From positions 1,178,001 through 1,242,000 of the forward strand of contig CM120642.1 in the NCBI GenBank assembly GCA_051362555.1: a stretch of DNA of 64,000 nucleotides. The letters are read 5' to 3'. Positions within the stretch are counted from its first letter, which is position 1, and each line of letters opens with the position of its first letter. Shown here piece by piece: positions 3,623 through 30,899 of this stretch. Made by a program: the position numbers and the translations under genes. Under the pieces are notes generated by a model, which searched no databases, was not told where the DNA came from, and saw only the letters and a program-made list of their open reading frames with translations. This stretch comes from Lingula anatina (taxonomy: Eukaryota; Animalia; Brachiopoda).

Positions 3623-6600
3623 GATCAGTTATATTATGAGCAGCTGAAGTCTTATGTGGTGCAGCATGATCTCCTGGTAGATAGTCTCATTTATAAGGTG
3701 AGCTGGACTCGGGGATCTTTTTTTTTTTAGATCCATCCAGATCTATAATAATAACTGGAAGGGGGGTCTGGACCCCACACCATGTATTTTTTCACAAAAT
3801 GGCAGTCTCATCACTGCTTAATACGCAGCCTGATTTTTTAAAAAAATGTTTATCATTTTGTCAAAAAGGACCCAAAACAACATATTAGAAGATAACAAAC
3901 AGTCTACCACAATCACACAGAATATATTCCATAGAATACAGCCATGACAGTTCTGCTGAAGAATTAATGACTGTCGTTATTATATTTGACATTTGATCAT
4001 CTGATTATCACAGTCAGCAACCAAGTAATTAAGTTCTCGACATCACAGATTCCGGTGAAGTCATAAAAATCAGGACTGACCTTGATCCTGACCTTGACCC
4101 TGACCTTGACCTTTTCACCGAAATGACCAGACTCTGTCACATCGGTCTTATATCAGTGAAGACCATTATCGTAATAAGTGCTTGACATTCTCACACACAT
4201 TAATCATGGGTATTTTGTTCCATCTGGGAGTAAAGAGGATGACTAAAAATCTCAGATAAAAAAACTCAACAACAGAATGATTAATTGCCTTGACCTGTGA
4301 TTTAATTCCCAGTGCAGACTTTATGGAATAATTTGTAATTACTGTTGTTTAAGCTCATTAACTCAGGGGAGAGAGGGGTGTTTGGGAGACAGCAATCACA
4401 GCGATATTAAGAATAAAGTGCATTAATTATGAGATGCATTCAATTTAATTTTTAAGTGTCATTCATTTTCATGTTCTTTCCTGTATACTAGAAGTACATT
4501 CATATCATAATAATATGATGTTAAATGTAATATTCAATATTGGCAGGGAAATTGGTAGCGGTGAGTAAAGAAAATATTAAAATATATAATAAACTTCTTA
4601 AAGAGTATTTAATTTTTTTTCATTTCACTGTTATTAATCATATACATATATTTAAATGTCTGTCTTCTGATAAACTGTCACAGTAGTTCTTTTCTTTTTT
4701 ATATCCAGGATGTTAAACTGACGGCTACAAATGATGACCAGTATTTTGTGTTTGAAGACTACATTTATCAGGTAAGATTGATTTTTTAAATTACTGTACA
4801 TGTATATTGCTTTACTAAGAGTGCCTTCCCAGTCCCAAATAGATGATCTTTTTGGTTGTGAAACATTTTCAGTGTCCTTTAGAATTTTTAGATAAGTTAA
4901 TTAACCTTGGAGTAGTTCATTATTGTTTTGTTTGCAGAAGCACTTGGGGCAATACAGGGACTTTAAAGAAAGAAAAATAATCTTCATGTTGCAGACAGAG
5001 AGTCTAACAATTTAATGAGTTCTCCAAAAATATTTTACTTTGGTGATTATGGAATTTCTTTACCACTTTATTGTGTCATCATGGTACAAATTATTTATTG
5101 ATTTAATAATTTGTAGCACTGATTAAAGTTGATTACATCCAGTATATTGTGTGTGTGCGTGCGTGAATGTGTGTGTGTGTGTGTGTGTGTGGATGTGTGT
5201 GTGTTGTTAATCATGTGTTTACTTAAATAATATATATTAATTTCTGGCCATTTTGTCATAAACTATCCAACTAAATACAGCATTACACAGGCATTGCTTC
5301 TCATTACCTGAGATAATTTTCTGAACTATCAAAATATCTTAAGTATTTTCCTGTTTTTCTGCTCAGTATTAGTACATGTCCACTCAGGGCATCATCTCAT
5401 CTTTTTTTAGTAAGTCAGATTATTTCTGATTGACTCGATCTGTAGTGTTATCTGGGAAATTGTTCCATTTGAAAATGTGACTTTTTGATTTATTGTTATA
5501 TTGGTATCAAATCAATTATGTCTTGAAAATTGCTTCTGCGAAATCGGGCGGTATTATTGTAGGATGATAAGCACTGGTGATGATACTCAGTATATAACCC
5601 CTGAAGTAATTATTGCTGGTCCAGAAAAATTTCAACCATTAAAATTGTCTCCATATTGAAATTCCCAGTTAATTCATTTATAATATTATTATTATCATCA
5701 TTCATTTGTATATTTGTTTGAAATTCTGATTTGTCAATTACAATACATGTCTAGTTATTTATTTTTCATTATGTCAGTTTTTGTTTGTTTGTTCTTCTGT
5801 TTATGTGTGTAAGTGTGTGTTAGAAAATGCATCTGAAGGCCAAAATGCACCATAACAACATTATATATATAATATATCATTTATCCCCCAGGTTTTATTC
5901 CCCTTTTCCCGAGATACCCAAGTCTTGGACCACTTTAAACACAGCAGTGCCAACCCCCCGAAGTCCTACATCCGCGGCAAGCTAGGTGTGGAGGAGTTTG
6001 CAGTTCACTATCCTCCCAATGGTGTTATTCCATTCCACGGGTTTGCTATGTATGGTGAGTTTCTGGTCCACTGCAGTCTCAGAGATCACTGGGGACTAGC
6101 CTCTATTCTCAGAAGATAGGTGTCAGCAGTGTCAGTGATCACTGTGGACTAGTCTCTATTCTCAGAAGATAGGTGTCAGCAGTGTCAGTGATCACTGTGG
6201 ACTAGCCTCTATTCTCAGAAGATAGGTGTCAGCAGTGTCAGTGATCACTGTGGACTAGCCTCTATTCTCAGAAGATAGGTGTCAGCAGTGTCAGTGATCA
6301 CTGTGGACTAGCCTCTATTCTCAGAAGATAGGTGTCAGCACTGGTGAAACTAATCCCAAACATGTCCACTTTGGCTTGTGCTGAATTTCTTCACTGTAGT
6401 TTGTCCCAAGGGAGCCAGACTGACATTTTGATATATATAGTCTGGCGTTTTCAGACCACCCTGTGTTTCAGAGATCTCTGGAAATTCACCTCAGTCTATA
6501 TCAGCCTGACTCTACTGTTGCCAATAACACCCACTGCACTGTACATCATATCCCTCATGAAAAAGTCCTACTGGATCTCTACTATAGGATTCTATAGGAA

Positions 6601-9179
6601 ATTAGCCCAATTTCCTATAGGATCCTATAGGATCTTATAGGATACTCTAAGAATTTTTCGTTAAGGATGTACAAATGACAATAAAAATTGGACACAAATA
6701 TACCAGAGGTTGTTTGCACTGTTTACTACACCACAATAAAACTTTTGTTTTTTAAAGATAAGCTTTTTTAGTTTACTTTGTATAAATAATTTGTATACCA
6801 TATGCCCAATTAACACATTTTTCAAATTTTATGAAGAATATCCTTACTCATGATCGACAGAGAGTGCAGTGCAGTGCAATAAATGTCACCACTGTGGACA
6901 AAGTTGATCACAAAAATGTAGAATGATTTTGCAGCTTTCCTAACATCTCTCCATATAAAAGAATGTCCAGTTTTGTCTTGTATTCCAGTGGCTCCTCTGT
7001 GCTACATCTATGATGATCCAGTAGTCCTGTACTACGTATTCAGAGAGCTCTACATGAGGTATTTCTTCAGGCTTCACCAGATCTCCTCTCATCCTCAGGT
7101 AGGTTATCTTTAACGGTACACTAAACACATTTGTTCCCAAAGTCATGCTTCTTTCTGCATATCTTGCGTTATTTATAGCACAGTAATTTGTAAACTTCAG
7201 CTTAAGGAACAACAATGATAATTTGGTTGGAATTTACTTTCATAAAAGTAGTGCAACAGATTTTTTTATATTTTGGCTTGAAAAATCTGGTCAAGTATTG
7301 TGAATATATCTTTGTCTTTCCAGAGTATTGTGTCTTTGTGTCTTCTGTTTGAATCTCTACTGCAATCACAAGAACCTCAGTTATTTCTGCATTTAAAGAC
7401 CATACAGGCTCAGCCGTAAGTATATCTGGATTTTTTTTTTAAAGAAAACCATTACAAAAAGATTAATCACTTTTTACCCATGAGTAAAACTTGTATGATT
7501 TTATAAGTTGTAATATTTCTTTTCTAGGCTGAGAATTGCATTTAAGTGGTTAATACGAGCATTCTCAGGTTACCTTGATAGTGAACAGGTCTTGCTGCTA
7601 TGGGACAGAGTACTAGCTTACAACTCGCTGGAGATACTGGCAGGTAAGTCTGGGACAGAATACTAACTTACAACTCACTGGAGATAATGGCAGGTAAGTC
7701 TGGGACAGAATACTAACTTACAACTCACTGGAGATAATGGCAGGTAAGTCTGGGACAGAATACTAACTTACAACTCACTGGAGATAATGGCAGGTAAGTC
7801 TGGGACAGAATACTAACTTACAACTCACTGGAGAAAATGGCAGGTAAATCTGGGACAGAATACTAACTTACAACTCACTCGAGATAATGGCAGGTAAGTC
7901 TGGGACAGAATACTAACTTACAACTCACTGGAGATAATGGCAGGTAAGTCTGGGACAGAATACTAACTTACAACTCACTGGAGATAATGGCAGGTAAGTC
8001 TGGGACAGAATACTAACTTACAACTCACTGGAGATAATGGCAGGTAAATCTGGGACAGAATACTAACTTACAACTCACTGGAGATAATGGCAGGTAAGCC
8101 TGGGACAGAATACTTACTTAAAACTCACTCGAGATACTGGCAAGTAAGTTCTGGGACAGAATACTAGCTTACAACTCACTGGAGATAATGGCAGGTAAGT
8201 CTGGGACAGAATACTAGCTTACAACTCACTGGAGATAATGGCAGGTAAGTCTGGGACAGAATACTAACTTACAACTCACTGGAGATAATGGAAGGTAAGT
8301 CTGGGACAGAATACTAACTTAAAACTCACTGGAGATACTGGCAAGTAAGTTCTGGGACAGAATACTAGCTTACAACTCACTGGTGATAATGGCAGGTAAG
8401 TCTGGGACAGAATACTAGCTTACAACTCACTGGTGATACTGGCAGGTAAGTCTGGGACAGAATACTAACTTACAACTCACTGGAGATAATGGCAGGTAAG
8501 TCTGGGACAGAATACTAGCTTACAACTCACTGGAGATACTGGCAGGTAAGTCTGGGACAGAATACTAGCTTACAACTCACTGGAGATAATGGCAGGTAAG
8601 TCTGGGACAGAATACTAACTTAAAACTCACAGGTAATATTCTATGTAATATTATAATAAATCTAATGTTCGAATTTTTATGGGCAGCTTTTTCTTCTGCA
8701 ACAGATAATGGAATCAAATAAAAAATATATTTTATTTAATGTTTCCTCTTTCAGTGTTAGCTGTGGCAATTTTTTCATTTAGGAAGACCAATCTCCTACA
8801 GGTTGGAACAGCTTCTGCAGCAGAGGTGGGTCTTTAGATAACCGTGGCTATTTTTTAATATTTAACACATCAGTATTTATAAAATAATCTGATATCTGAT
8901 ACATGCAAATGTTTAATTATCATTGAAACTCTTTAAAGCTCAAAAAGCTTGAAAAATTTCATTCATATATGATTTATGTTAATATATATTCTCTTATAAC
9001 TTTGAGATTACTTTTTCTTGTTGTGTTAATTTTATAAGCACTTTTTTATTTATCTCAGTGCGCTGAGTAACTTTAATTTCTTCAATTAAAGAAAATTATT
9101 TGTATTTCAGGGTGTATTAGCAGACATCACAACTCTAAAAGTTGTTCCACTGATACAGCTCAGCCTCTTCTCAACATGA
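3623..9179 (+). CDS. TBC1D19: TBC1 domain family member 19, 3' portion (8 exons; upstream exons not located)
   Basis: Phase-consistent GT-AG exons 3623-3697, 4709-4771, 5892-6054, 6989-7098, 7324-7415, 7528-7643, 8755-8825, 9111-9179. They translate to DQLYYEQLKSYVVQHDLLVDSLIYK/DVKLTATNDDQYFVFEDYIYQ/...YPPNGVIPFHGFAMY/VAPLCYIYDDP.../LRIAFKWLIRAFSGYL...LLLWDRVLAYNSLEILA/.../GVLADITTLKVVPLIQLSLFST*, matching the TBC1D19 C-terminus as I recall it. Confidence 0.92.
4077..4112. repeat. Six tandem TGACCT-like hexamers
   Basis: TGACCT TGATCC TGACCT TGACCC TGACCT TGACCT read directly, in a TBC1D19 intron. Confidence 0.7.
6084..6340. repeat. 53-bp minisatellite, about 4.8 copies, intronic
   Basis: Unit tgtcagcagtgtcagtgatcactgtggactagcctctattctcagaagatagg repeated almost perfectly just after the donor at 6055. 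Confidence 0.95.
7601..8630 (+). repeat. 50-bp minisatellite, about 20 copies, made of a TBC1D19 exon end plus its splice donor
   Basis: Unit tgggacagaatactaacttacaactcactggagataatggcag|gtaagtc. The first copy (7601-7650) is the real exon end (WDRVLAYNSLEILA) and its donor. Confidence 0.97.
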
Positions 9180-12050: not shown

Positions 12051-13101
12051 GACATTAAGAACAAGTTGATCCATAGACTAAATATGGCTGACCCCACTTA
12101 AAAGCAGTGCCACTCAATCCCCTGATGGTCTCCCCACCTCCATGTGCACAGATGCTGCAGGTTTACATAATCTGTTTAATGGCACGTCATGTGGAGACCA
12201 TCAGGACATTAAAAGGATAATAACTCTTTGTTTTGGCCAAAATTTTAATTTTCCTGGAGTAAACAACAATTTTCCCATACTTACAAATGGTTAATGAATT
12301 CAATTCTATCAAAGTTAGTCCCAGGTTTTTTTCTAAAAAGTTTGGTTTTTTGTAATAATCTCTTAAGAGATTATAACTGAGCACAGCCATCAATGGAGGT
12401 CACGTGATCTGAAGACAAGCTCAGATATCAAAATAATAGCTATAACTGACGTTTTTGTGGTAAAACAGAATATATTATATTTCTATGAGTTGTTCACAAT
12501 GTTTTTATTGTGATATATAGATCCCATACTAAGATATATTTTCTTTTTTAGTGGCACTGCTCTTAAGTGGGGTCAGCCGTATTTAGTCTGTACCCTCTAC
12601 CAGAGCAACTGATAGATTTTTTGACAGATATTCACAGATAAGTCTCTAGCTAGATAGATGGTCATTTTGGTCTGAAGTCACCCTGTTGAGAAATCCCATG
12701 TGGAAACAATTATCTCTGCACGCGAACCAAAGGCTTTGTACTTGCTCTGCATGAGCTGAGCTTCACAACGATGTTATAACTGCTCGTTACACAACCAGTC
12801 TAAGGCTTTTTTATCTGTCACAGAAGAGCAAGTGATTAAAGTCAGAGCAATTAACTGTCTTGATTGCTGTCACACAGACTTTGACTGGACCTGCTAAGTG
12901 GCAGTGCCTGAGCAATTATGCAAACAATTACCAGCCATGTAATCAGCTTTGAGATTTCTTAACAGGGTGACTTCAGACCAAAATGACCATCTATCTAGCT
13001 AGAGACATATCTGTGAATATCTGTGAAAAATCTATCAGTCGCCCTGGTAGAGGGTATTTAGTCTGCGGGTCAGTTACTCCGTGGATCCTCTGTTCTGAAT
13101 A
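12051..13101. mobile_element. Degenerate palindromic MITE (family also at 14751-15037 and 34018-34217), interrupted by a nested element
   Basis: agactaaatatggctgaccccacttaaaagcagtgccact (about 12076-12115) is the near reverse complement of agtggcactgctcttaagtggggtcagccgtatttagtct (about 12550-12589). The right end resumes after the nested insert and ends in gttctgaat. Confidence 0.65.
12591..13056. mobile_element. Non-autonomous DNA transposon with about 105-bp TIRs and a 9-bp TSD (Mutator-like architecture)
   Basis: TIRs taccctctaccag...gtcaccctgttgagaaatc (12591-about 12695) and gatttcttaacagggtgac...ctggtagagggta (about 12952-13056). Direct repeat tttagtctg at 12582-12590 and 13057-13065. 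Confidence 0.85.
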
Positions 13102-13121
13102 CACTATGTATTGCCAACATA

Positions 13122-16100
13122 TTACTGGGAATTGTCATCATCTAGAGCTCTTTCCAGTTTTTCCCAATCATGGGCACTCACCATACAACATGCATTAACA
13201 TCACTTAGTTTTGGTGGTACATCACTCTTGTTGGCATTTTCTCTACAAATCGGAATTACAAAAGAATTCTTTCCCGAGAAAAGTTTGTGACCAATAGCAT
13301 GATTCACTTCATAATTATACCATCCGTCTTCCGGTTCGCTGCCTGAAATTATAACTAACACTTTAAAGCTATTTTCAATGCTTTCCAATATAGAATCAGT
13401 AATGGTTGTACCTGGAATAAAATCTCTCTCTTTGACACAACCCTTAAAACCTTTCGTGCCCTCTAGAGTAGTTAATAAATGGTAAGACACCCAGTCTGAG
13501 TCTTCTTTTTCTGAGTAAATAACATAAAAATCATACAGCTTTCCTTTCTTGTTTTTAGCATTGCAGGGAGGTGGAGGGATTGATTCTAAAGTGGAATCAC
13601 AACGTTCAAATTTCTTGTTTTTTAAGTCTTTTTGTAACACATTTTCTTCAAAATCTGTCATTGTCGCAGCATCTTTGGTTTTCTTGTCCTCTGTGCTTGG
13701 GGTAGGAGCAGAACTTGACTCCTCACTGGAAGATGGCAGAGCAGGTGTGGGAGGGTGGTCCTGTTCACATGGCACCACTTGTTGGCTTTCACTGCTCCTC
13801 TCTGTTCCTTCTGCATTTTCAGTGTCTTCTGTGGTTTTGGCCACCCTGTCAGTCTACAGTAAAAAAAAGAAAAAAAATAGTTACTTAAACCTAAATCCAG
13901 ATATTTGGGTGTTGTTTTTTAACCTCTAGCACAACCTACCTCCCCAACACACACACACACACGTATGCACAAATATATACACACAAACACAAACACACAC
14001 ACAGAGGAAGAGCTGTGAACTTTTGGCTTTTGTGTTTTCAAGATTGTTTGAAAAGTCTGGCTGTCATCTCTATGAACTGGAAGTACCTGTCGAACTGCTG
14101 TGGTGGATTCTATAAAATATGTATGTATGTGAGGGAAAGGCCACTTTTTAGAGTACTTGAAAAGGCACAGGAAAAACTAATGTCATACTATAGTACCTAG
14201 GAAAGAATTGCCTTCCCTGCACTGTAGTTACTGTTACAGTAACAGATAACATGACAGATTCCTGCTCAGAGGAGTTGGTGAAATAAACCATGATTTTGTC
14301 AGGATATGAAATCATTCTTGTACAGAATCAAACACAACTAACACATGTAAGTTACATTACCATTGCCTTTCTCTCGAATTCTTCATCAACCTCAGCAAGT
14401 TTCCTTACATATCCTAAGAAGAACTCCTTTAGATTACTACCACCACGTAATACCTGAAATTGCAAGATTTGACTAATATTCTACATGTACTTTATTATTC
14501 ATTCCAAGTAATAGCTCATGAACTCCACCCCCCTTTATTTTTACCGTTTTTTTTTTTCCTGGAAACAGTACATAATTGTCAGAAATATAAAATTTATACA
14601 ATTTAGTAACACTGTTTGAATTTAATAAGAAATTACCAAAAAGATGACAGCTACGAAGTATACCTGTTAAACTGTTATTTTATACATGTGTAAATGACTG
14701 GATCTGGTATCTATTACATGTATTGTATAATCTTTTATTCTCACTGAGCACATTCAGAACAGGTGATCCTTGGACTAACTGATCCACGGCCAAATTAAAA
14801 TATGGCTGATCACACTTAAAAGCTAGCTGCTTAATTCCCTGATGGTCTCTCTGCCTCCACACTCACCATTTAATCTCCGCTAGAGGTTTAATTGCTGGGG
14901 CCCCACAGCAACAGTATGTGTGGAGGCAGGGAGACCATCAGGGAATTATGTGGCTTGCTTTTAAGTGGGGCTGGGGTGGGGCTGACCATAATTACTTTGT
15001 GGATCTGTTAGACTGCGGATCAATTTGTTCTCAATGCATTCATTAACAGTAACATCAGCTTCCCAACTCGAGGATCAGAGGCAATATTGCCTCCGGATAT
15101 TGTACCACCAGCTGGAGTAAGTGCATCTGTATGAAAAACCAAAAATAAAGGGATACCACCACCAGTCATGCTCTATAAAATGCAATAAACAATTAAGAGT
15201 TCTCAAAAAAAAAAAGGCGAAAAAACTTAACTGCAAAAATGGTCCAATCAAGCAGATTTTTGAATTGACACATATTTTCCTAACATTAATCACTCCCGTG
15301 ATTTTCTAGACAATAGGCCTATTGTCTTTCCTTGAAATGTGTTATCAGTGTTGTATATACACTGACAAAAGAGAAAACATAGGGGCAACACTGGGCATAT
15401 CTCTGCTAGTTTTGAAGATATGAGGGGCCAGAAAACATGCAAAGTGCAAGTCATCATAAAAAGTAGGTCAAAGGTCAATTTACAGGTCACAGATTGCCAG
15501 TATATGATTTCCTATTCAAGTTCAAAAGTAACTATGGGTGTATCTCTGCCAGTTTTGGAGATGTAAGGGCTGGAAATTTTGCAAAATTCAGTTCATGGTG
15601 AAAATTAGGTCAAAGGTCCATTTCAGGGTCACAGTTATATTGCTAGTACCATATATGACTTCCTATTCAAGTTCAATAGTACATGTAACTATGGGCGTAT
15701 CTTTGCAAGTTTTGGAGTATTTCACATTTTATTTTCACCACTGAATATTGCAATGTTGTACTTTTTGATATAGCACATGTCCTTAACCATATTGAAAACA
15801 AAAAAAAATGGAAACCACTTCGGCTTTTGCACTAGGACAAGTTCTACAAAATGCAAAAAACAAAAGGTCTCTAGCATTTATGGTTCCAGAAATAAAGAGA
15901 GTTTTCAGTTTCGGTATCTAATGGCTGCTTCTCCTGTGAAAATGCACCAACTGACCCCGACTAAAACCATGAGTACCGCCAACGTACACGCTGGCGGTAC
16001 TAATAAATAGGCACAAAATTATACTTTTCTCTACAGCAAACTCTTAGCCTACAAAGTAATTTTTTAAATGATTCAAAATATGAAACATCAAACGTGAAAT

Positions 16101-19100
16101 AATATATATTAAAACATAATCGTTATATCATTATGTATTAGATCAAAAGATGATCAGTGTACATGACTCACTCGAGACAATATATTTCATACTTGCAGAG
16201 GAGGGGGCTTACTTACATCTGCCCCTGCTTCTGTTTGTGACATCTCAACATTGTGCATTTTGGAGGCAGCTTCATCCCCTAATACAGGAGCATCTGCCTG
16301 TACTTCACCAGGACCTGGCCTTGGTTGGTTAGTGCTGTTTTCATAATGTGCTAGTAAGTCACTCAAACCTTTCTTCAAACGGTCTGCTAGCTTCCTCTTG
16401 TTATTCTGCAAAAGATCACTGTACAAATCCACCATGACATCTGGACAGCCTACAAATTTGTCGTCTTTTGGATTCCAAAATCGCTGAATCTCTTTATCTA
16501 GGGTTTTCTGTTGAAATTTGTCACATCCTTCACTAAACCAATACTGAAGTTCTCCTCTTGTTTTCTTGCAAGCTGCTTTGGCTTTTGCATGTTCTGAGAT
16601 GTTTTCTGATTGATTTACAGAATTATTTTCAGGACTCTTTGCCTCCTCAACATCAACATCTCTCAGCCTCTGCTTGTTTTTCTGGCACCATTGTGCAAGG
16701 ATTTCAATCAGCCAGCGGAAGCTAAATATATGAATGCTTTTAGGCTTTTGGGTTTCTATAGCCTTCTTGAAACTTTCAACAGCACTCTTCTCTTGGTCAA
16801 AATCTCTTAAACACCGACCTCTTCTCTGGTGAATACTTGGATCCTTTTCTCCGTCCAAACTTTCCACAGCATGCTTAAAGTTTATAACTGCTTCTAACAT
16901 CTGGTCCTCATCAATGACTTCTCTCCTTTCATTAATACCAAGAAAATGACTTATTTCAGCCAGATTAGCATAGATTTGTGGAGTTGGGTTCCTTTTGACA
17001 GCCTCTTTGTAATACCGTTGAGCAGTCGCCGCCATTGTTTTCTCTGGGAGCTGTCCCTTGCCCGTATTCACTTTGTTATACCACTGGCTTACATACGGGT
17101 ATTTGAACATGTCACCCATAAGATGGTATGCAAACCAATTACTATCTCCATTATCCAATTTTATGGACTTCAAGAGAAGGGTCTTGGCTTTCTCAAAATC
17201 TGCAAAATCTTCATTCCTTTGGCTCAAAAATTTAGCATACCTGTTAAGAATGTCTGTTCTTTTAGGGGTATACTCTTTTGCCAAAATGAAGCAAATTTCA
17301 GGGTTATTGTAGTATTCCTGTAAGTGGTTTTTCTCCATGATATCAGTTATATCATGTTGCAGTTTCCCTTGTAGCTCAAAATCTATGTATGCACAGAACT
17401 TGTTGAAGCCTTCTTGAGATGCATGCTGTGGATGAGTATGATGATGAATTGTTTTTTCTGCTAAATTATGTGTAATGGTATTAGATTCTGTGTGTTTCTT
17501 GTTCTTTGACTTGTTTTCAATGAACACATTGCCCAAAACACAACCCAAGTGAAGCCAGCCTTGTGCTTTGTAATGGTTGTCTTTGCTTTTGGTCACCCTA
17601 TGAAAAAGTTTAATGATTATTTCCAAGGCACTGTTTTTGTCCAAGTTTTTGTGTAATTTTTCCAAAACTGGTTGATTATGGTAAATTTGAGACAAATTGT
17701 GTGCAATAAAAAAACACCATTCAGTTCTTTCCACTTCATCGATTAAATCTCCTGCCTCTTGCCACGCCCGCATGTATGACTCGTGAGCTCGTGCACAATC
17801 TTTGCCGCGTTTTTCCTGCTTTGTTGTTACATGTACATCAAATGCAATCATGTAACCCTGCTCAAATAAACACCTCCCCCGTCGTTTTCTCTCTTCATCA
17901 CTGGGTTCATCTCCACCCATCAACTCGTTTAACTTCTCCAGATAAAGTTCAGCTTTTGCGACACAGGAAAGTTCCCTGTAAACATACTCCAGGTTGGCTA
18001 AGGCATTCAAGTTTGCACTATCTTCTTCAAGAATGCTTTCAAAACTTCTAATACTTTCATTTGTTTTCCCATCTTGGTATTGAAGCACCCCCAGAAGGTT
18101 GAGCATAGCAAATTTATGTGGCCCTGTTTGTAGGGTTAACATATACTTCTGAATGGCTTTTTTGTATCTCATATGCTGTTTATTGGTCAGTGGACTAACC
18201 CTCAGACAAAGTTTTTCAAAACCTAAAACAAACAAACAAAAACATGCTGGTATATATTTGATATATCAAACTCAGCCTGGTTTTCTAACTCTGTCATCCC
18301 TAATATGGGCAAATAAATGTCAGGGTAGACATTGGTGCTGATATCATTAACTGGGGTAGCGCTAGCAATCTATTTCACTTAGCCATATCACCACTTTTTT
18401 GTCAATTTGTTATCAAAATGGTTATAATTTGGCTAAAACATGTCAAATCAAGCCCTTTTGCCCTTTTTCTTTAGCCAATTTCAGTCAGTTTTAGCATTTG
18501 GCTAAATTGGCGAGTGTTAGCGCTACCCCAGATTAAGACAAGGTGTACCAAGTATGTGCAGCTGTGTGGTACGGTAATGGCTAGATCATTTCAAGCAGGT
18601 TTTAAAGTAATAAAATCTTAATATTAGAACAAACCTACTGAATGGTGGTTAAAAGCAGACTACCCAATAGTTCTAATCTATACAGATAAGCAGCAAAATG
18701 CTTCATAGCTTCATGCTTCTAACGGTTCCAAAATTATATATATCTAAAAGAATTGATAATTTTTCTCCGGTTGAAATGTAGCTATTACAGTACAGTCGCA
18801 ATCTGGGAGCCAGCGTTCTGTATCCAATGTTGGCCCACAAAGTGAGTTGGCAAAAAATAATAATAAAAAGTAATTTGATGCCGGTATACAGAATTTCCTT
18901 CCAGAAAAGTAGTCTCAGCAAATCAGTATCAATGTCAACCACCGACACTAATTAGTAATGCTGGGATGGAATGTGTAGAGTAAATCATGGTGCTAAGGAC
19001 ACATAGTCCAATCAAGGAGTTATAACTCCTTGGTCCAATCAACTCACTTTTGACACCTGTCATGGGATACAGAATCATTAAAAAAACTTTTGCTAAATGT

Positions 19101-19644
19101 GTGTGTGTGTGGGGGGGGGGGGGGGGGGGGGGGGGGCTATCTTGCTGGTACCACTGTCCACCTCAATCTAACCCTCTGCATCATCCCAGTGATGTCCAAA
19201 ACTTTCTCACCACTAGCTGCCACATACGTACTGTACTGTAAACTCTCTAGCCTCAGCGGGCAACTACTAGTACTGTACATGTACATGTATACCCACTGAA
19301 GACATGCTCCACTGAGGACAGTAGCGTTTTGGGTTCTGTTGACAAAGTTTAAAATATCTAAACTGATTATGATCAACAATTACATTAAGTTACACAAGTG
19401 TGTTATTATTATACAAATTCATTTCGTGGGTTTTAGATTCATTCATAGGGACAGCATAGGGACAACACAGTAACAGGAAGCGGAAGGCAAAATGCTATTA
19501 AAGAGAAGACTACCACGGGATATGTCTTTACAATGCACCTGCTGCTGTAAACTAGTGGCACGACTTTGATTTTTTAGACTAATTACCTGCCCTGAGAGCT
19601 TTTTCTGGGAGCTTTTTCTGTTCAACAGGCATCGTTGAGGCCAT
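13122..19644 (-). CDS. TTC22-like TPR protein with C-terminal TIR domain, paralogue A (about 960 aa)
   Basis: Exons 19644-19587 (MASTMPVEQKKLPEKALRA-G), 18222-16217 (alternative donor 16193), probable 14453-14361, and 13853-13122; phases 1/0/0 are consistent. TTC22 motifs NLNALANLEYVY, RGRCLFEQGYMIAFDV, ILNRYAKF, NWFAY. TIR motifs YDFYVIYS, DWV, GCVKERDFIPG, VLVIIS, WYNYEV, VIPI. Joining of the TPR and TIR exons is inferred from phase and from the identical layout of paralogue B. Confidence 0.85.
14751..15037. mobile_element. Palindromic MITE in an intron of paralogue A
   Basis: taattccctgatggtctctctgcctccacac pairs with gtgtggaggcagggagaccatcagggaatta. Ends cattcagaac...gttctcaatg match the copies at 12051 and 34018. 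Confidence 0.75.
15340..16006. mobile_element. Degenerate interspersed repeat with internal tandem cores of about 150 bp and a terminal hairpin (possible non-autonomous Helentron-like element)
   Basis: The core aggtcaaaggtc...tatatga(t/c)ttcctattcaagttcaa...gtaactatggg occurs twice. Hairpin agtaccgcca-acgtacacgc-tggcggtact at about 15972-16001. The family assignment is inference. Confidence 0.45.
18351..18531. mobile_element. Small MITE, 14-bp TIR, 5-bp TSD
   Basis: ctggggtagcgcta ... tagcgctaccccag, flanked by attaa on both sides. Confidence 0.8.
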
Positions 19645-19874
19645 ATCTGGAGGGGATTTTTTTTGACTTTAGTCACTGGGCCTTAGTGAATTAGAGATCA
19701 GAAAAATGCCCCGGAATGTGCCACAAGAGGGTAATCATGTCGTAAGCTTGGACTCAAGTGTGCAGAAAAACTTTTGCACTAAAAACTCTACAAATAATGA
19801 AATACTATACAGTTATATAACTGTTCTGATTTTTAAAGATATTTTTAATATGTAAACCTTTCTACGCGAGCTGT

Positions 19875-19898
19875 GGGAACTTCCGGTTGGGATTTCCC
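19875..19898. promoter_or_regulatory. Tandem NF-kB-like sites with an overlapping ETS site in the putative bidirectional promoter
   Basis: GGGAACTTCC (19875-19884) and GGGATTTCCC (19889-19898) both fit GGGRNNYYCC. acttccggt is the reverse complement of the ETS motif ACCGGAAGT. The cluster lies between the ATGs at 19644 (-) and 20794 (+). Confidence 0.6.
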
Positions 19899-20224
19899 CG
19901 ACGGCAAACATACATGTAGAATGAATGCGATGATGATATGGAAAGTTCATTTTAAAATTATGTTTACCGTTTAGGTGGGATGCACACATTTTTGCAGACG
20001 GTAACTCTGTTTCCTTTAACATCAACTTGGTGTTGTTACTTGAATAGTAAATTCATAAAGAAGTCTAAATCGGTGTAAGACATATTTCTCTCCACCGTGC
20101 TTACCACACGTACACTACGGAGGGGAAGTGTTGGGCACTGTTGTACTCAGTAGTATTTCCCCCACTACCGATATAACTCTGTGGCATTCGATGTCTTTTC
20201 TAAATTAATTTACGTGGTGATTAG

Positions 20225-20457
20225 GAGCAATGTCTCTGCTACTCTAATAAATAAGTTTGGCAATTCATTTACTAATTTTAAAATATTTTTACAGGAAACT
20301 TAATGCCTTTCAAAAATCATGAGAGCCGAGGACATCACTGGGGGTGAACACATGCTGTAATCTCATTGGACAAAGAACTTGAAGGTTAAAAAAAAAGGTG
20401 AAACTATAAGGGATTCAATTTCCAAACTAATGTATTTGGATAGCAGAGACATTGCTC
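20225..20457. mobile_element. MITE-like inverted-repeat element between the divergent start codons
   Basis: Perfect 17-bp inverted repeat gagcaatgtctctgcta / tagcagagacattgctc, with imperfect extension on both sides. Confidence 0.65.
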
Positions 20458-20793
20458 AAAGTCACCGCATAACTTATTTTTGATTAGCCCTAAAAATTAG
20501 AGGGTTTCAGGTTGGGGCAGGGGGGGAGGGGGACTGCTGCATGAGTACCGAGTTTTGAGTATGGTAAGATGTCAAACTATGATGATCAATCAACACAGTG
20601 GCTAATTTAAGTCAAAGCATTTTTACATTACAAATAATAATATAATGGTAATAATAACAATAGTTGTAATGGTTCAATTTCCAGTTTTGATCCTTGAGCA
20701 TCCTCAGATGGTCCTATGATGATAAGTTTGATACATAAATGGTAGTCTTTGCTGCATTGTTTCAAGACCCTGTAGCACGCCAGTGTTCTAGTC

Positions 20794-23700
20794 ATGAATG
20801 ACAATACAATCCAGACACAAGAGCTCACCCTCATTCCAGGTAATGTAATATCCTATTTAGTTTTTTCCCATGGTTACTTTGCCTCAGCTTGTGCTTCAAA
20901 CCCTCTAGGCTAAAAATATTCACATCCTGGGGAACTGTGTGTCCATTATGGTAAAATTCCTTAAAAAATTCTTTTGTCTGAGTCCACACACTAGTTTGAT
21001 AGTTTTAGTCTTATTATTCCAGCTATATACAGGGGGTGCATGGACAGCACTACATCTGAAGCTGAGAGTAGCTCTTTGTCTTGTTTGTTAATAGAATAAC
21101 CATGACAACCTGAGATATGATGTGCTTGAAGTACACATTAACAGTGAAAAGGTTTTCTTTAAAACTGCATCACTGAACATTGGCTGAAATCAGTTTAACT
21201 GAATGACACACCTCCTTCTGTTTCCACAGTACTCGTATAATAATCAGCCTTTCTGTATTTTACTTAATAGGAGGAGACATGTTACGTTAAAAACTTGAAA
21301 ATTTTGTCGATCTTGAAAATGTATGAGGGTCAAGAATAAAAGCTGATAAAGATGAAAACCCGAAGGTCAGAGTTTTGAAAATTTTTGTCATACCCAGGAG
21401 TCGGGGGGGGGGGGGGGGGGAGGGTAAAAATTCGTTGGATTTACGGCATTAAAAATATGAATTATTTTTAATTTTCAAGTTTTTACCGTATACAGTTCAG
21501 CTGATTTCAGGCAATGTGAGTCCCTGCAGAGTTGGAGACCGTTCACATGCAAAATTTATTTTCTAAAAATCTATTTTCTATTCGCGGTATCTTGTGATCA
21601 CGGTCTGTGCCCTGAATACCCTGCGGCGTAATTACTGGCAGCGCGGGCCAGTTACTTCCAAAGCTGTAATTAATTCTCGGCTGCCCTTGGAGTGATCACA
21701 AGATACCGCGAATAGAAAATAGATTTTTAGAAAATAGACTTTCTAGATGAATGGTTTCTTGGTTCCATCCACGTAGACTGATGGTGTCTGTGGGAATGGG
21801 GGGGGGGTCTCAGATCAAAAACAAAAGGTTCCATGCCTGTGGGAATCCAGCTCTTTATTTTGACAACACATTTCAGAGATGAATTATAGATTTGATGTGA
21901 TTTTTTTGTTCTAGGATTTGAAAGCCTGGGTCTGCGTGTCAATCCACAAACAAACAAGTTACAAATAAAGTACAAGAAGGCAGTCCAGTTTGACATCTAT
22001 AAACACCAGTCAGGACCTCACAGGAGTGCCCTCCTCAACCTCAGAGCCGTTTTTGAGTATCAAGATGGCGACATCTACAGGAGCATTGAACTGTTTGAAA
22101 AATCCTGCAAACTCGACCCGACCAACCTCAATGCTCTAGCAAGCTTGGAGTATGTTTATCGAGAAGTGGGTGTCTCTAAGAAGGCAGCAGAGTATGGAAA
22201 AAAACTAGAACAGTTGCAGGGAAACCCAACCTGCCGAGCCAGGTGTTTCTTTGAACAGGGTTACATGATAGCATTTGATGTTTTTGTTGAAGCTCAGGGT
22301 GTGACTGGGATCCAGGCCCATGCTTACTACTTGAAGGCATTGGAGATGGTACACAGAAAAGAAGCAGACATAGAACACAGGGAATTATTAGAATGGTGCT
22401 TTTATGTGGCACATAATTTAATCCACATTATTAAGACAGAGGCAGTTATGCACAGTAAGTCTGAGAAAAATAAGTTACACTGCCTTGCCCTAAAACTGTT
22501 CCATGCGGTCACGTTCACAAAGGATGATAATTACAAAGCACAAGCCTGGGCAAGTATTGCACATCTGCTGAGTAGTAGGTGCATTAGAATTGTATCTTCA
22601 AGCCAGGAGGTGCAAAATCATAATTCAAAGGGGAAGAAAAATCCCCAGAAGACTGAGCTTTCTCCAAGAAATGTATCACAGCAGCAATGTAAGTCTGTGA
22701 AGAGCCAGTTTAGCAAAGACCCAAATGCAACTGCAACAAAGTCAAATGTGAAGTCCAAGCCACTGAACAAGCAAAATAGTAAAGATAACATACAGATGAA
22801 ATTCCTGGAGGAATTTTGTGAACAAGTTTACAGTAATGTTCTGGGTTTATCAGCTCAAGAACATCTGCCTGAAGAGAACAGAGCAGGTTCAGGACAGTCC
22901 TCAGAGCAAGCCACAGACACAGACAGGAGTAAAAACAAACGAGATAAACAAGAGGCTCAATCATCAGCTGTTCCAAAGAAGAAAAACCGCAGACAGCATG
23001 GTCATATTAAGGTCCCCCCTGGCTTAAAAGAACTGGGGTTGGTCAAAGCTCCTTACTTTGAGAACAAGGATGAGTTGTGCAAATGTGTTTCTGGATTCTT
23101 TGAGAAAGCTAAAAGTTATGCCCCGTGCTACACAAATATCCTCAACAGATATGCTCATTTTTTATGGCATATTGGCAAAGAAGATGAAGCTATGGAAATA
23201 CACGAGGAGTCGATTGATATTGATAAGTGTGAGAGCAACTGGTTTGCCTTTAAATCCATGGGGGAAAATCTGAGAAAGAAATATAAGGATGAATGGTACG
23301 ATAGAGTGCACCAAAAAAGTGATAAAAACCCAAGGATTGAATTAGCCTTTAAAGCAAAAGAGAAACTTGAAATTGCGGTTCAGCATAATCCTAATCCCCA
23401 GGACTATGCCTACTTGGCTGAAACTTGTCATTTTTTGGGCATAGACACAAATAGACAAGTGACAGATGAGAAAATGCTCCTGAAAGCACTTTACTATTTC
23501 AAGTATGCCACAAATAATTTACAAGGAGGAAGGATCCCAATGTTGCATCATTTGCTAGGGCTGTGCTTGCTTGATCTGGGGGAAAAAAGAAATGCTCTGG
23601 AATCCTTTAAGAATGCTTTGCAATGTCAGGAACCAAACAGCACTTTCACAATATCTTTCCGTTGCATGATGCTAGTACTTTTACAGATTTGCAAGAGTGC

Positions 23701-25893
23701 AAAGACAAAGAGCGATGATAGGACCTACCAAACTGCAGTACGAGAGCTGAGACACTGGATGATTGAAGGATGTCATCCTAACAGATATTTAGAGAAAGAA
23801 TTGCTCAAAGAAATTTCAGAGTTGTGGGGTCCTAGAAAGGAACCATTTGAGCCTGATATATTGACTGAGATATGTGTTAAACTGAAGAATGGAAAACAAG
23901 AGGAACAAAATGTGTCTTCTTTGCTTGAAGGTGGACTTAAGTTGTGCATTGACAAGTATCCCAAGCAACCTGCCCCCACAGCAGGCTCTGAACCAGCAGA
24001 GAGAGATGATCTTCATGTTTCCCAGCTTAGGACTTGTTTGGAGAAAATACAGTTGGTAAGGGGAAAAAATTGCAGTGCATATTAGCTATTAAGTGATCTA
24101 AATTGTTACTTGTATTACCAATAATATTTTGAAACAAATAAGTATCCCTCATGTTCACTGTAGTGAAAAAAAAAGTACTCTGGCTCAGATTTTTTTTTTC
24201 AATTTTTCCGTGATTGTGTTTGGATTTCAAAATGACCTCTGCATTCAATGTGTTTTTTCATTGCAGTTAGTTTCAGTGTTCTTGATGTTTTTTTTTTTTA
24301 CTTTACAGGCCCCAACCCCCAAAGCAGCCGAGCCAGTCAGTATGCCAGGGGCAGCTGTAGATGTCCCAGAAGTAGTGATGGGATCAAGTCAAACATCACA
24401 GGACGTACTGAAGGAAGCTACTTCAACCTCACAGTCCACCTATAGAGGTGTTGATGAAACCACCCTAGCTGAGTCACAGGTAGCTGTGTGTGTGCATGTG
24501 CTTGTGTGTGTACGCATGCATGTATGTGTCACTGTGAGAGCATGCATGCATGTGTGATATGTGTGTGTGTATGGGTGTGTGTGTTTGAGATAACCTTTAA
24601 TATCTTTATAATAGAACATATTCGTCTATGGTAATTATTCATTCTTTTCATTGGGGGAACATTGTAAATTTTACAGATATTGCACTTTTCAAGTTATAAT
24701 TTCTTAGATTAGAACTTTCCTGTTGAGCGGTAGCAACAAAATTAAAAATCAGGCTACTCTTTAAATTTATTCTGTGTAGTAATAGCACCAGAAATGCTAT
24801 GTAGCAATGAATTTTTTGTGATTATAAAAATATTTATCCAAAAGTTTGATAATTTTGCCCATTGAAAAGATCATGTAATTATGATAGCACTTATTGCTCT
24901 GACATTTTTATTTTTCTTTTTGTTATGTTTATCTTTTTAAACTTTAGACTGTAGCATCTCAGTGAAATATATTATTATTATTCGCAGGCTCTACCCCAAG
25001 CTTTAGACCCTAACTCTGTGAAGACTTCCGTGGTCCAAGAAGAAGGCAGATCATTGGAAGAGAAAGGTGCAGGTATGTTGCCATCAGAGATGCCGCCTAA
25101 TCTCTTGCCTCCAGACAGCAATGAAGATGACACATATAGACCAGCTTCAGCTCAATCTGAATACACATCTTCTTCAGTTCAAGTAGAGCCTCTCACTGAC
25201 ATTGTAAGGACTGGCGACCCAGAGGCACAGGATACTTTTCAACAGGAGAGAAGAGAAGCACGCAACGACACGCTCACTGCTGACAAACCTGCAAAATCTG
25301 AAGAAATACATGAAAAAAATGACAAAGAAATTCAGTGTGATATTTCAACAGAGCCCCCAAGTGACATGATGGGCCAAGTGCCCTCATCTCCCCCTCTGGC
25401 TTATTGCTTCGAGTCCAAACGAGCCAAAAACTTGAAAGGCATGGAGTATGATTTTTTTGTGATGTATTGTGACTCTGATGCAGACTTTGTCAGTTTTCAC
25501 TTACTAACAACCTTAGAGAATTCAAAAGAGTTGAAAGGTTGCATAAAAGACAGGGACTTCATGCCTGGTCAGATAGTGTTGAACTGTGTGACAAACGCAA
25601 TAAAAAATAGCTCAAAAGTCATCGCTGTTATTTCACATGCTTCAGTAAAGGATTCTGATTGGCTCTACGAGATATACTTAGCAATAAAGGAATATAACAA
25701 AAGAGGCAGTTTAGCTCTGCAGTCCTCCAAGCTACCCAGTTCTTATGTTATACCCATCTTGTGTGAGAATGAAGCAGGAGAATTACCCATAATGCCAGAA
25801 GTCTTTGAAGTCTTCGCAGCTGCTAAAGTTCCTTTTGACAGAAAAGATTGTAATTGGGACAAATTGGAAAAAGCTATTCGAGATGATGAATAA
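20794..25893 (+). CDS. TTC22-like TPR protein with C-terminal TIR domain, paralogue B (1087 aa)
   Basis: Exons 20794-20839 (MNDNTIQTQELTLIP-G), 21915-24055, 24309-24479 and 24988-25893 total 3264 nt with an open frame and canonical splice sites. Motifs NLNALASLEYVY, RARCFFEQGYMIAFDV, ILNRYAHF, NWFAF. TIR motifs YDFFVMY, GCIKDRDFMPG, VIAVIS, WLYEI, VIPIL. Confidence 0.9.
21557..21736. mobile_element. Young MITE with perfect TIRs of about 45 bp in the first coding intron of paralogue B
   Basis: tattttctaaaaatctattttctattcgcggtatcttgtgatcac and its exact reverse complement at 21692-21736. Confidence 0.85.
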
Positions 25894-29162: not shown

Positions 29163-30677
29163 CTACACAGACGATCCCGTGGGGTCGACGAGGCGACCCA
29201 TGAATAATATGGCGCCAGTGGTCTTCTCTCTTATCAGGAAAATGAAGGGATGATCCGCATTGAAGAGAGGGGGACTCATCATGGAGCGCACCGAGGCCAC
29301 TGCAGCGGTGGCTGCCGCCGCCTCCGTCCCCTTCTCATCTACTGCAATAAAAGCCTCGTGAACAGCCGCTGAAATATAGAGACCATTCGCTTGGATGGCA
29401 ATACCGGATAGATCAGCCCTGGAACGCTCGAAGACGTCCACCATCCCCATCTCGTTCAAGGGTCGCTTCAAGTTGACCTTCATATTCTTGAGAGTAAACT
29501 TGGGCAGATGCACGTCAAGAGTGATGTTTGTTAGTCCCGACAGAGCCTGGTTCACACCACCGGGTAAACTTAGTTTCTTCTCAACTTCCAGATAGTCATC
29601 GAACACCTCGGGCAGAATGATGAACATGCTGGCATCGCCGCTGTACGGTACCTCAAGTATCCTGCTGTTCAGCTCACGGCTAAATTTGTAATTAAAGCTT
29701 CCGCGTTGATACATCATCTTTGTACTTTTTTCGACAAACGGTCTGGACCCTGACACAGGCTGGTACCAGATTTTCAATTCAGTTGCTCTTTCGTCAAATT
29801 GCCGCTTCCAAGTGCCTTTGAAGTAAATAGCGTTGACGAGAACCATCACAGTGTTTTGGTTTATCAACGAGGGCGGAAGCAAGTTCTTGATCTTCGACTG
29901 GGTTTGCTCCTCTACAAATCTGTTGATGATGTTAGCGGCTGCAACGGGGTTCCGGAAATCCACTCCCCGAAGTGAAGCATTAAAGATGGACTCACAGAGC
30001 CGTAGATAAGTTGTACGGAACGAGTAAGACGGGTTTGCAAACAGCCTGTTGGCCGCCCGTAGTATGTATGTCCTTTCCTCACCGAACAAAATTCCGTTCA
30101 AGGCCTGGAGACCCGCGTTCTTTTCTGGCAAAGTCTTCAGCGAAAGCACGGTTTCCATTTCATCTTTTGTATTTCCATTTGCCCCTAAAGAAACCATAGA
30201 CATAACGGTGGCAATACTCAGTGGACTAAAGAACAGGTTCTCTGCAGGTTTTTCTTTGGCCAGGGTGTCGAAGAGCTTGGAGGAAAATCTATTAAAGGCT
30301 TGAGCCGCGTCCCGCGCTTTGGTTAGACTTTGGGAAGTACCCATAGTTGGGAGATTACTTCCTGGTTGTTTCCTCAGTCCACTGAAGTCCAGACTAGGGC
30401 GGTAAGGTGTAGGACTTCCTGTGGTGGGTTGAACCGGCTTGTTGCCTGCTTGGCTGGAACCTTGGCCCGATGAGGACGAAGATGAAGACGAAGATGAAGA
30501 CGAAGATGAAGACGAGAAGGTCTGGTCTACGTTGTCGCAGACGCTGTGGGCCGCCGCGCAGGTCGCCTGCGCCATTTGGCGGCAGACACTGGACACCGAC
30601 CCCTGCCCGCTGGTCACTTTACTGACTAATACAAAACAACAGAGGGCGACGGGGAGCACCGCATGGACTGACCACAT
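29163..30677 (-). CDS. Secreted inhibitory serpin (P1 Arg) with a Cys/poly-Ser N-terminal extension; intronless CDS, 504 aa
   Basis: Signal peptide MWSVHAVLPVALCCFVLVSKVTSG. Serpin motifs NLFFSPLSI, LVNAIYFKGTW, LPKF, hinge EKGTEAAAAT and signature FNADHPFIFLIRE. Counting from P17 Glu gives P1-P1' = Arg-Ser. Confidence 0.96.
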   Translation of the reverse strand: MWSVHAVLPVALCCFVLVSKVTSGQGSVSSVCRQMAQATCAAAHSVCDNVDQTFSSSSSSSSSSSSSSSSGQGSSQAGNKPVQPTTGSPTPYRPSLDFSGLRKQPGSNLPTMGTSQSLTKARDAAQAFNRFSSKLFDTLAKEKPAENLFFSPLSIATVMSMVSLGANGNTKDEMETVLSLKTLPEKNAGLQALNGILFGEERTYILRAANRLFANPSYSFRTTYLRLCESIFNASLRGVDFRNPVAAANIINRFVEEQTQSKIKNLLPPSLINQNTVMVLVNAIYFKGTWKRQFDERATELKIWYQPVSGSRPFVEKSTKMMYQRGSFNYKFSRELNSRILEVPYSGDASMFIILPEVFDDYLEVEKKLSLPGGVNQALSGLTNITLDVHLPKFTLKNMKVNLKRPLNEMGMVDVFERSRADLSGIAIQANGLYISAAVHEAFIAVDEKGTEAAAATAAVASVRSMMSPPLFNADHPFIFLIREKTTGAILFMGRLVDPTGSSV

Positions 30678-30899
30678 CTTTCCTAATTAAGGCACTGAAA
30701 CGAGAAGGTGAAATATTAGAAATATTATGAAGGATGAATTTAATATACTGCATTTATTGTTTCTTATATCGCATTTTGAACTATCATACAGAAGAGCATT
30801 TTGGTTGTTGTTGTCGAATCATGTCATCTTTAAAGACAATGTTTCACGTAATGACCTTCAATACGTAGTCTCTTTGCCCGATCTCTTTAAGCCCCCATC

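Follow-up and report, generated by a model that had tools for sequence, protein, structure and literature searches.

Two divergent TPR-TIR genes of Lingula anatina combine a predicted IFIT/TTC22-type fold with a TLR-type TIR domain

What might two divergently transcribed genes, each joining a TPR domain to a TIR domain, do in a brachiopod? We addressed this question in a 64,000-nt stretch of the Lingula anatina genome (GenBank assembly GCA_051362555.1, contig CM120642.1, positions 1,178,001 to 1,242,000 of the forward strand), hereafter the window, from whose first letter all coordinates are counted. The two genes, which we call A and B, had been singled out in a sequence-only reading of the window as a candidate paired innate immune receptor system. 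Our analysis upholds the gene pair, the TPR-TIR fusion, the TTC22 ancestry, a predicted IFIT-like fold and the TLR type of the TIR domain, and so far gives no support to a conserved pairing of sensor and helper. As to function, the chances seem to us about evenly balanced that A and B are each a cytosolic immune receptor that signals independently through a scaffold TIR domain. The main weight of this result lies on the gene family and not on the pairing.

Six-frame translation gave two long TPR frames and two TIR frames pointing away from each other. Gene A (minus strand, 962 aa) begins at an ATG at 19644 and gene B (plus strand, 1087 aa) at an ATG at 20794, with stops ending at 13122 and 25893, respectively, and zero internal stops in either, as had been claimed for two intact divergent paralogs. 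The proposed common exon plan also held, with four exons in each gene, intron phases 1, 0 and 0 in both, and GT-AG at all splice sites. Exon 1 of gene A (19587..19644) carries the ATG, 19 codons and 1 nt (phase 1), and 18 of its 19 residues are those of RefSeq XP_013412800. Exon 2 (16217..18222; RNA depth 0-5), for which an alternative candidate donor lies 24 nt beyond (16192), encodes a predicted IFIT/TTC22-fold TPR domain with a lineage-specific insert of ~70 aa, as judged from Pfam and a structure model. It is followed by a 31-codon linker exon of phase 0/0 (14361..14453), where reads lie on the exon and almost none in the adjoining intron bins, and by exon 4 (13122..13853), which holds a low-complexity linker, a TLR-type TIR domain (~13134-13545) and the stop, based on Pfam, a PDB search and RNA. 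The corresponding exons of gene B are exon 1 (20794..20839; ATG, 15 codons and 1 nt, phase 1), which matches the beginning of RefSeq XP_013387363 exactly; exon 2 (21915..24055), with a TPR domain of the same predicted fold and a largely disordered insert of ~160 aa (Pfam, model); exon 3 (24309..24479), a 57-codon linker exon of phase 0/0 (splice model, RefSeq); and exon 4 (24988..25893), with a low-complexity linker, a TLR-type TIR domain (~25440-25890) and the stop (Pfam, RefSeq).

Pfam assigned TPR families to both large exons and, at E 6e-15 and 5.6e-10, TIR to both last exons. Across these four exons, with matches admitted up to E 0.1, it found neither NB-ARC/NACHT nor a recognizable decoy domain, and there was one weak unrelated match. 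In the TPR lobes, A and B share 42% of residues over 279 columns and 32% over 352 columns; in the TIR domain they share 41% over 156 columns. Neither N-terminus is hydrophobic, and the top 19-residue hydropathy (1.07 in A, 1.40 in B) stays below ~1.6, the cut-off for a membrane helix, in line with the claim that the proteins lack a signal peptide and transmembrane segment. By these gene models, A and B are intact paralogous genes with likely cytosolic products.

RefSeq holds related copies from the same species, which we sort by their likeness to A or B. The A-type protein XP_013412800 (980 aa) is 79% identical to A, and the B-type protein XP_013387363 (1089 aa) matches B at 975/1087 residues; both map onto the same four exons as the window genes. 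XP_013412796 is 97.7% identical to B over 842 residues, and B's two last junctions are common to both. The window sequence is identical to no RefSeq copy, so it probably represents another haplotype or assembly. One A-type gene and two B-type pieces lie on one RefSeq scaffold (the same 591450-nt contig, with adjacent accession numbers). The two pieces are LOC106175384 and LOC106175381, giving XP_013412802 (a 187-aa N-terminal piece) and XP_013412796 (an 842-aa, N-truncated C-terminal piece); either the allele is broken or the assembly is in error. The remaining copies of the three types, copy C (LOC106153060) among them, are spread over three more scaffolds and may be paralogs or uncollapsed alleles.

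That TPR and TIR exons belong to one gene, as had been proposed, is indicated by the continuous frames, the matching phases and the RefSeq copies on identical exons. We also mapped RNA reads from four of nine same-species runs, three of them stranded, on 12400-18100, which covers the TPR, linker and TIR exons of gene A only. These exons were covered at depth 0-12, with minus-strand orientation in 3/3 stranded runs, and depth was 0 in 4/4 runs at 13928-14309. Reads of ~150 nt (151 nt) lay on the 93-nt linker exon, which was flanked by almost no depth, and hence must run on elsewhere. The 15 joints listed, out of 201, all fell inside an intronic repeat and none at a gene A exon joint. Nine coding differences were listed in the reads, and the residue was that of XP_013412800 at 7/8 codons, so most of these reads stem from sister copies of the A type. 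In run X1, 10-13 of 10-13 reads carried the non-window letter at coding differences; in run X2, about half of the reads did so in the TIR exon, and in the linker exon letters specific to the window's gene A were kept in 4/23 and 4/15 reads. A-type exons are thus transcribed. If the TPR and TIR exons were separate genes, or the copies were decaying, the locus would be an uninformative duplication. We find this hardly credible: gene A's joints are not among the 15 of 201 listed, and one RefSeq haplotype has its B-type gene in two pieces, but both genes have open frames whose phases match, reads of 151 nt lie on an exon of only 93 nt whose flanks show almost no depth, and the same fusion recurs in 58/83 relatives.

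The intronic repeat lies in the second intron of gene A (15074-16028), with RNA coverage up to ~4500-fold, mostly from reads less than 95% alike. It is a high-copy transcribed element.

We searched for the wider family with a profile built from A, B and copy C against 1.84 billion representatives, obtaining 801 matches at E<=0.001 and 151 at E<=1e-10. The counts that follow rest on an examined set of 151 sequences (150 matches listed plus one from another search). Among these, 112 were colinear family members by a test profile built partly from them, and the other 39, of which 38 were generic TPR proteins and one a short fragment, were set aside. A C-terminal TIR domain was present in 58 of the 83 family members of at least 500 aa, among the matches listed, and Pfam agreed for most of 30 scanned. 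TIR-bearing relatives include echinoderms, acorn worm, amphioxus and oyster. Twelve non-Lingula members were checked by name (from Acanthaster, Patiria, Amphiura, Ptychodera, Glandiceps, Branchiostoma, Saccostrea and gar), nine of them with a TIR domain. Word-based homolog searches returned Lingula copies only, or generic TPR proteins, and the wider family surfaced only in the exhaustive profile search.

The profile matched gar TTC22 over the whole TPR region (E 2e-33), and of 20 members looked up, two were from Lingula, nine were named TTC22-like and one was gar TTC22 itself. In the ESM Atlas, rows 1-3 by structure were all TTC22 clusters (TM 0.67-0.69 by target), and the nearest clusters by features were from echinoderms and molluscs (0.96-0.97). 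Taken together, the profile matches, the names and the Atlas structure rows establish the TTC22 ancestry that had been proposed. Judged by these matches, the fusion of a TTC22-type region with a TIR domain is widespread among invertebrates and not special to the Lingula locus. A literature search pairing "TTC22" with "TIR domain" returned no paper, subscription papers being outside its scope, and pairing "TTC22" with "IFIT" returned no paper on a TTC22-IFIT-TIR link, judging by the entries listed.

The sequence-only reading had further likened the TPR region to IFITs, and here the evidence comes from predicted folds. The TPR-exon models had a mean predicted local distance difference test score (pLDDT) of 89.2 (A) and 86.0 (B), with the insert between the lobes partly of low confidence, and IFIT1 and IFIT5 were the top structural matches for both. 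In VIA-align, the 11 best entries for A were all IFIT1/IFIT5 (Z 21.0-26.4, root-mean-square deviation 4.6-7.5, 398-435 aligned; next entry 17.4), as were the 11 best for B (Z 20.0-21.3, deviation 4.4-7.8, 402-433 aligned; next 17.7), with IFIT2 scoring lower (15.8 for A, 15.0 for B). IFITs also had the highest Foldseek TM-scores (0.40-0.46 by query), and the family profiles matched IFIT1/5 at E 1e-14 to 1e-10, with ~200 colinear residues at ~1e-14. Single-sequence PDB searches with the TPR exon of B, gar TTC22 and a Ptychodera member listed no IFIT, such that IFITs emerged only through family profiles and folds. At four basic positions conserved in the family, one Arg is kept in both A and B, one is kept in A only, and two are lost in both. 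The models predict that A and B carry the whole IFIT-specific TPR architecture.

The Ptychodera sequence P0145 (XP_070566814) is a TPR-TIR family member on a long branch in the tree, and has at its N-terminus the word CHFTW, which we take to be typical of IFIT N-termini. It is a possible bridge between IFITs and the TPR-TIR family.

As had been suggested, the TIR domain is of the TLR type: its best solved relatives are TLR15, TLR2, TLR1 and TLR6 (E 5e-17 to 2e-12). In both A and B, the BB loop is intact (RDFxPG), and a Glu occupies the site that corresponds to the catalytic residue of enzymatic TIR domains. Across 57 family TIR domains, the BB loop keeps its Asp in 55, its Gly in 53 and its Pro in 34, and the Glu is present in 20/57, including A, B and all RefSeq Lingula copies. 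TLR TIR domains, which are scaffolds, bear the same Glu in PDB alignments. The near fixation of the BB-loop Asp and Gly, together with a Glu in only 20/57, favors a scaffold TIR that would recruit an adaptor over an enzyme. One could instead propose a NAD-cleaving TIR of the SARM1 or plant/bacterial type, activated by TPR-driven clustering, and the Glu shared by A, B and all RefSeq Lingula copies would suit such an enzyme. Since scaffold TLR TIRs carry this residue as well and most family TIRs do not, and since SARM1 is not among the 42 PDB matches and enzyme-type TIRs rank last, we judge NAD cleavage very unlikely.

The 1149-bp region between the start codons (19645..20793) is a putative bidirectional promoter. 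By pattern matching it holds two adjacent NF-kappaB-like decamers (19875-19884 and 19889-19898), 231-254 bp upstream of A's ATG. A TATA-like word stands near 19819 on the side facing gene A, and the decamers lie ~55-85 bp upstream of it. Locally, kappaB-like strand-matches numbered 3 versus 0.13 expected (P ~0.01), and such words were not enriched across the whole window (6 versus 3.7 expected). The shared upstream region and these sites are hints of co-regulation.

The reading that we consider the most likely is one in which A and B are receptors acting independently. The predicted IFIT/TTC22-fold TPR clamp would bind a foreign ligand, for which RNA ends are our best guess. The TIR domains, attached to the clamp by a long and probably disordered linker, would then cluster through their BB loops and recruit a MyD88-type adaptor, a step that would switch on NF-kappaB as the output, and the kappaB-like sites would provide feed-forward induction. 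Through their shared upstream region the two genes may be induced together, and the range of ligands may thereby widen without an obligate A-B complex.

Several observations weigh against this reading. The kappaB signal was noticed post hoc, and the word for an interferon-stimulated response element (ISRE) is absent from 19645-20793 (0/17 of the window's matches to GAAANNGAAA, the one pattern used). RNA depth of the A-type exons is low. By Foldseek E-value, OGT, SPY and Ski3 stand level with the IFITs, sequence identity to IFITs is only 14-17%, and the lobes carry a mild net charge (A +1/+5, B +6/+1; gar TTC22 -7/-8). In addition, TTC22 binds RPL4, and knockout mice are without a phenotype, according to the accessible part of one report (PMC13693868).

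The same components could also act as adaptors or dampers instead of sensors, with the TPR domain binding a host protein, the TIR domain joining or competing in TLR-MyD88 complexes, and the kappaB sites serving negative feedback. The nearest named relatives are TTC22 and TTC22-like proteins, and TTC22 is described, in the portion of the source available, as a protein-interaction TPR protein (PMC13693868). TIR-only competitors of MyD88 have been proposed in oyster, as far as the accessible text goes (PMC4346834), and the BB-loop Pro is lost in 23/57 family TIRs. However, the quick, mosaic change of the TPR region in A-type copies, set out below, is more in keeping with a foreign ligand that changes than with a host partner that stays the same, and the whole IFIT architecture is retained. 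We regard such a role as a lesser possibility, though one to be taken seriously.

How did the pair arise, and does the arrangement itself carry meaning? We built trees of the TPR region with 69 rows and, by a quick mixture model, with 28 rows; no IFIT rows were included, and Lingula was the only named brachiopod. In both trees, the six Lingula rows formed one clade (Shimodaira-Hasegawa approximate likelihood ratio test, 100), split into A-types on one side and B-types plus copy C on the other, with B closer to copy C than to A. Gar TTC22 fell in a separate starred clade of three TIR-less rows. Since all Lingula copies lie in one clade, the pair probably reflects duplication within this lineage, and the head-to-head layout most likely goes back to an inverted duplication that is old but took place among Lingula ancestors. 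A and B have diverged by 1.3-1.5 changes per site. We rejected a recent duplication: in a self-comparison, they share only a 41-bp DNA remnant.

The A-type copies are 73-79% identical to each other and mosaic, with 117 runs versus 144 expected (0/10000 shuffles as low). Variable sites make up 33-63% in the insert and N-terminal half and 17-19% in the C-terminal part. This mosaicism, together with the expansion in copy number, fits an immune receptor family. Among A-types, the folded domains differ by 13-21% against a linker divergence of 16-22% (Fisher test versus linker, P 0.12-1), and between B and XP_013387363 they differ by 4-10% against the same linker divergence of 16-22% (P 1e-8 to 0.003). 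The faster A-type divergence is a hint of divided labor. The disordered insert of B is just as well conserved (6%); this speaks for a recent exchange of sequence more than for selection, such that the asymmetry between A and B is confounded.

These data bear on the claim of a conserved sensor/helper pair. In its strongest form, A and B would be obligate partners like the head-to-head nucleotide-binding leucine-rich repeat receptors (NLRs) of plants, the fast A recognizing a ligand and the constrained B partnering it to signal. The genes do stand head-to-head 1149 bp apart and have persisted as a pair despite deep divergence; A- and B-type genes also lie together on one RefSeq scaffold; the folded domains change more among A-types than between B and XP_013387363 at a similar linker divergence; and the title of PDB 6c6k attests that IFIT1-IFIT3 heterocomplexes exist. 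On the other hand, both TIR domains are intact and alike at the BB loop and Glu, the asymmetry is confounded by the conserved B insert, B is nearer to copy C than to A, and the split into two clades is not seen outside Lingula among the sampled rows. With a Lingula-only clade, no NB-ARC or decoy domain and extra copies on other scaffolds, the claim of a conserved pair has found no support so far, and an obligate pair seems to us doubtful. A bolder combination appears less probable still, and we rate it as a long shot: that the common ancestor of IFIT and TTC22 was a cytosolic TPR-TIR receptor, coupling RNA-end recognition to Toll-type signaling before interferon, and that Lingula would in addition operate a recombining sensor A with a constrained partner B under NF-kappaB control, like plant paired receptors.

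The significance of independent cytosolic TPR-TIR receptors, if A and B are such, would extend beyond this locus. A whole predicted IFIT fold placed before a Toll-type TIR domain across invertebrates offers a testable origin for IFITs and for TTC22, a protein with no clear function, and makes the TPR-TIR family a candidate for a further class of cytosolic immune receptors beside TLR, NLR, RLR and cGAS-STING. The Lingula locus adds an intact, at least partly expressed and diversifying example with an asymmetry between partners.

Elsewhere in the window, just beyond the stop of gene A, an element resembling a miniature inverted-repeat transposable element (12591-13056) has 108-bp inverted ends of 93.5% identity, and tandem arrays lie at 7601-8638 (~50-bp unit, ~20 copies, ~95% alike) and 6073-6343 (53-bp unit). 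On the other side of the pair, a serpin gene (29166-30686, minus strand) consists of a single frame with a Pfam Serpin match (E 1e-110); its N-terminus is hydrophobic, and a long Ser-rich stretch precedes the serpin domain. A 1599-codon frame at 43874-48670 (plus strand) has 19 chitin-binding peritrophin-A (CBM_14) stretches, Thr-rich spacers and internal repeats, and is peritrophin/mucin-like. A nuclear receptor gene at 54214-61564 (plus strand), with a C4 zinc finger at 54214-54522 and a ligand-binding domain from 60155, is presumably NR2E-like.

How, then, do A and B compare with known systems? Plant paired NLRs such as RRS1/RPS4 are head-to-head paralogs with TIR domains and a short common upstream region. 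The Lingula genes share the head-to-head, TIR-bearing arrangement, with ATGs 1150 bp apart, but differ in being without NB-ARC, LRR or a recognizable integrated decoy; among the sampled rows, the two partners split within a Lingula-only clade and do not come from two widely conserved ones. A and B are not a paired NLR.

Closer in architecture are the cytosolic TIR proteins of invertebrates, among which TIR-TPR proteins are listed for oyster (PMC4346834) and Aplysia (PMC9334734), catalogued without function in the accessible sections of both papers. The ecTIR-DC families (PMC6321704, PMC5549309) comprise proteins hypothesized, in what is available of the first of these papers, to be adaptors or regulators (PMC6321704), and the TPR-TIR family may already bear an ecTIR-DC number. 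Unlike our account of A and B, the TIR-TPR and ecTIR-DC descriptions give no link to TTC22 or IFIT in their accessible text, and the accessible text of PMC8662601 does not deal with TPR.

With vertebrate TTC22 and invertebrate TTC22-like proteins (e.g., Acanthaster XP_022102224, Branchiostoma XP_019643233, Saccostrea XP_062601482 and Ptychodera XP_070579288), A and B share a TPR region that is homologous over its whole length. Most invertebrate members also share the C-terminal TIR domain, whereas vertebrate TTC22 (gar XP_006635058) is without it. The Lingula copies differ from TTC22 in an extra insert of 70-160 aa between the TPR lobes, a linker of 180-240 aa and a clade of their own.

The comparison with IFITs is a matter of fold rather than of membership. 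In the part of the source available, an IFIT is a TPR-only protein from a two-exon gene with ISRE motifs in its promoter, and IFITs are found only in jawed vertebrates, invertebrate TPR matches having been judged non-IFIT (PMC3688568). Our literature search for "IFIT-like" with "invertebrate", whose scope did not extend to subscription papers, returned as its sole match a 2013 paper denying invertebrate IFITs. A and B have four coding exons and a C-terminal TIR domain, and so depart from IFITs by this added domain, by two extra exons and by the lack of an ISRE word upstream. What they have in common with human IFIT1 and IFIT5 (PDB 4hot, 4hor, 5w5h, 5udi, 6c6k) is a predicted fold that matches over IFIT residues ~19-481 and a short first exon followed by a single large TPR exon. 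A and B are not IFITs by membership, though they likely work on an IFIT-like scaffold.

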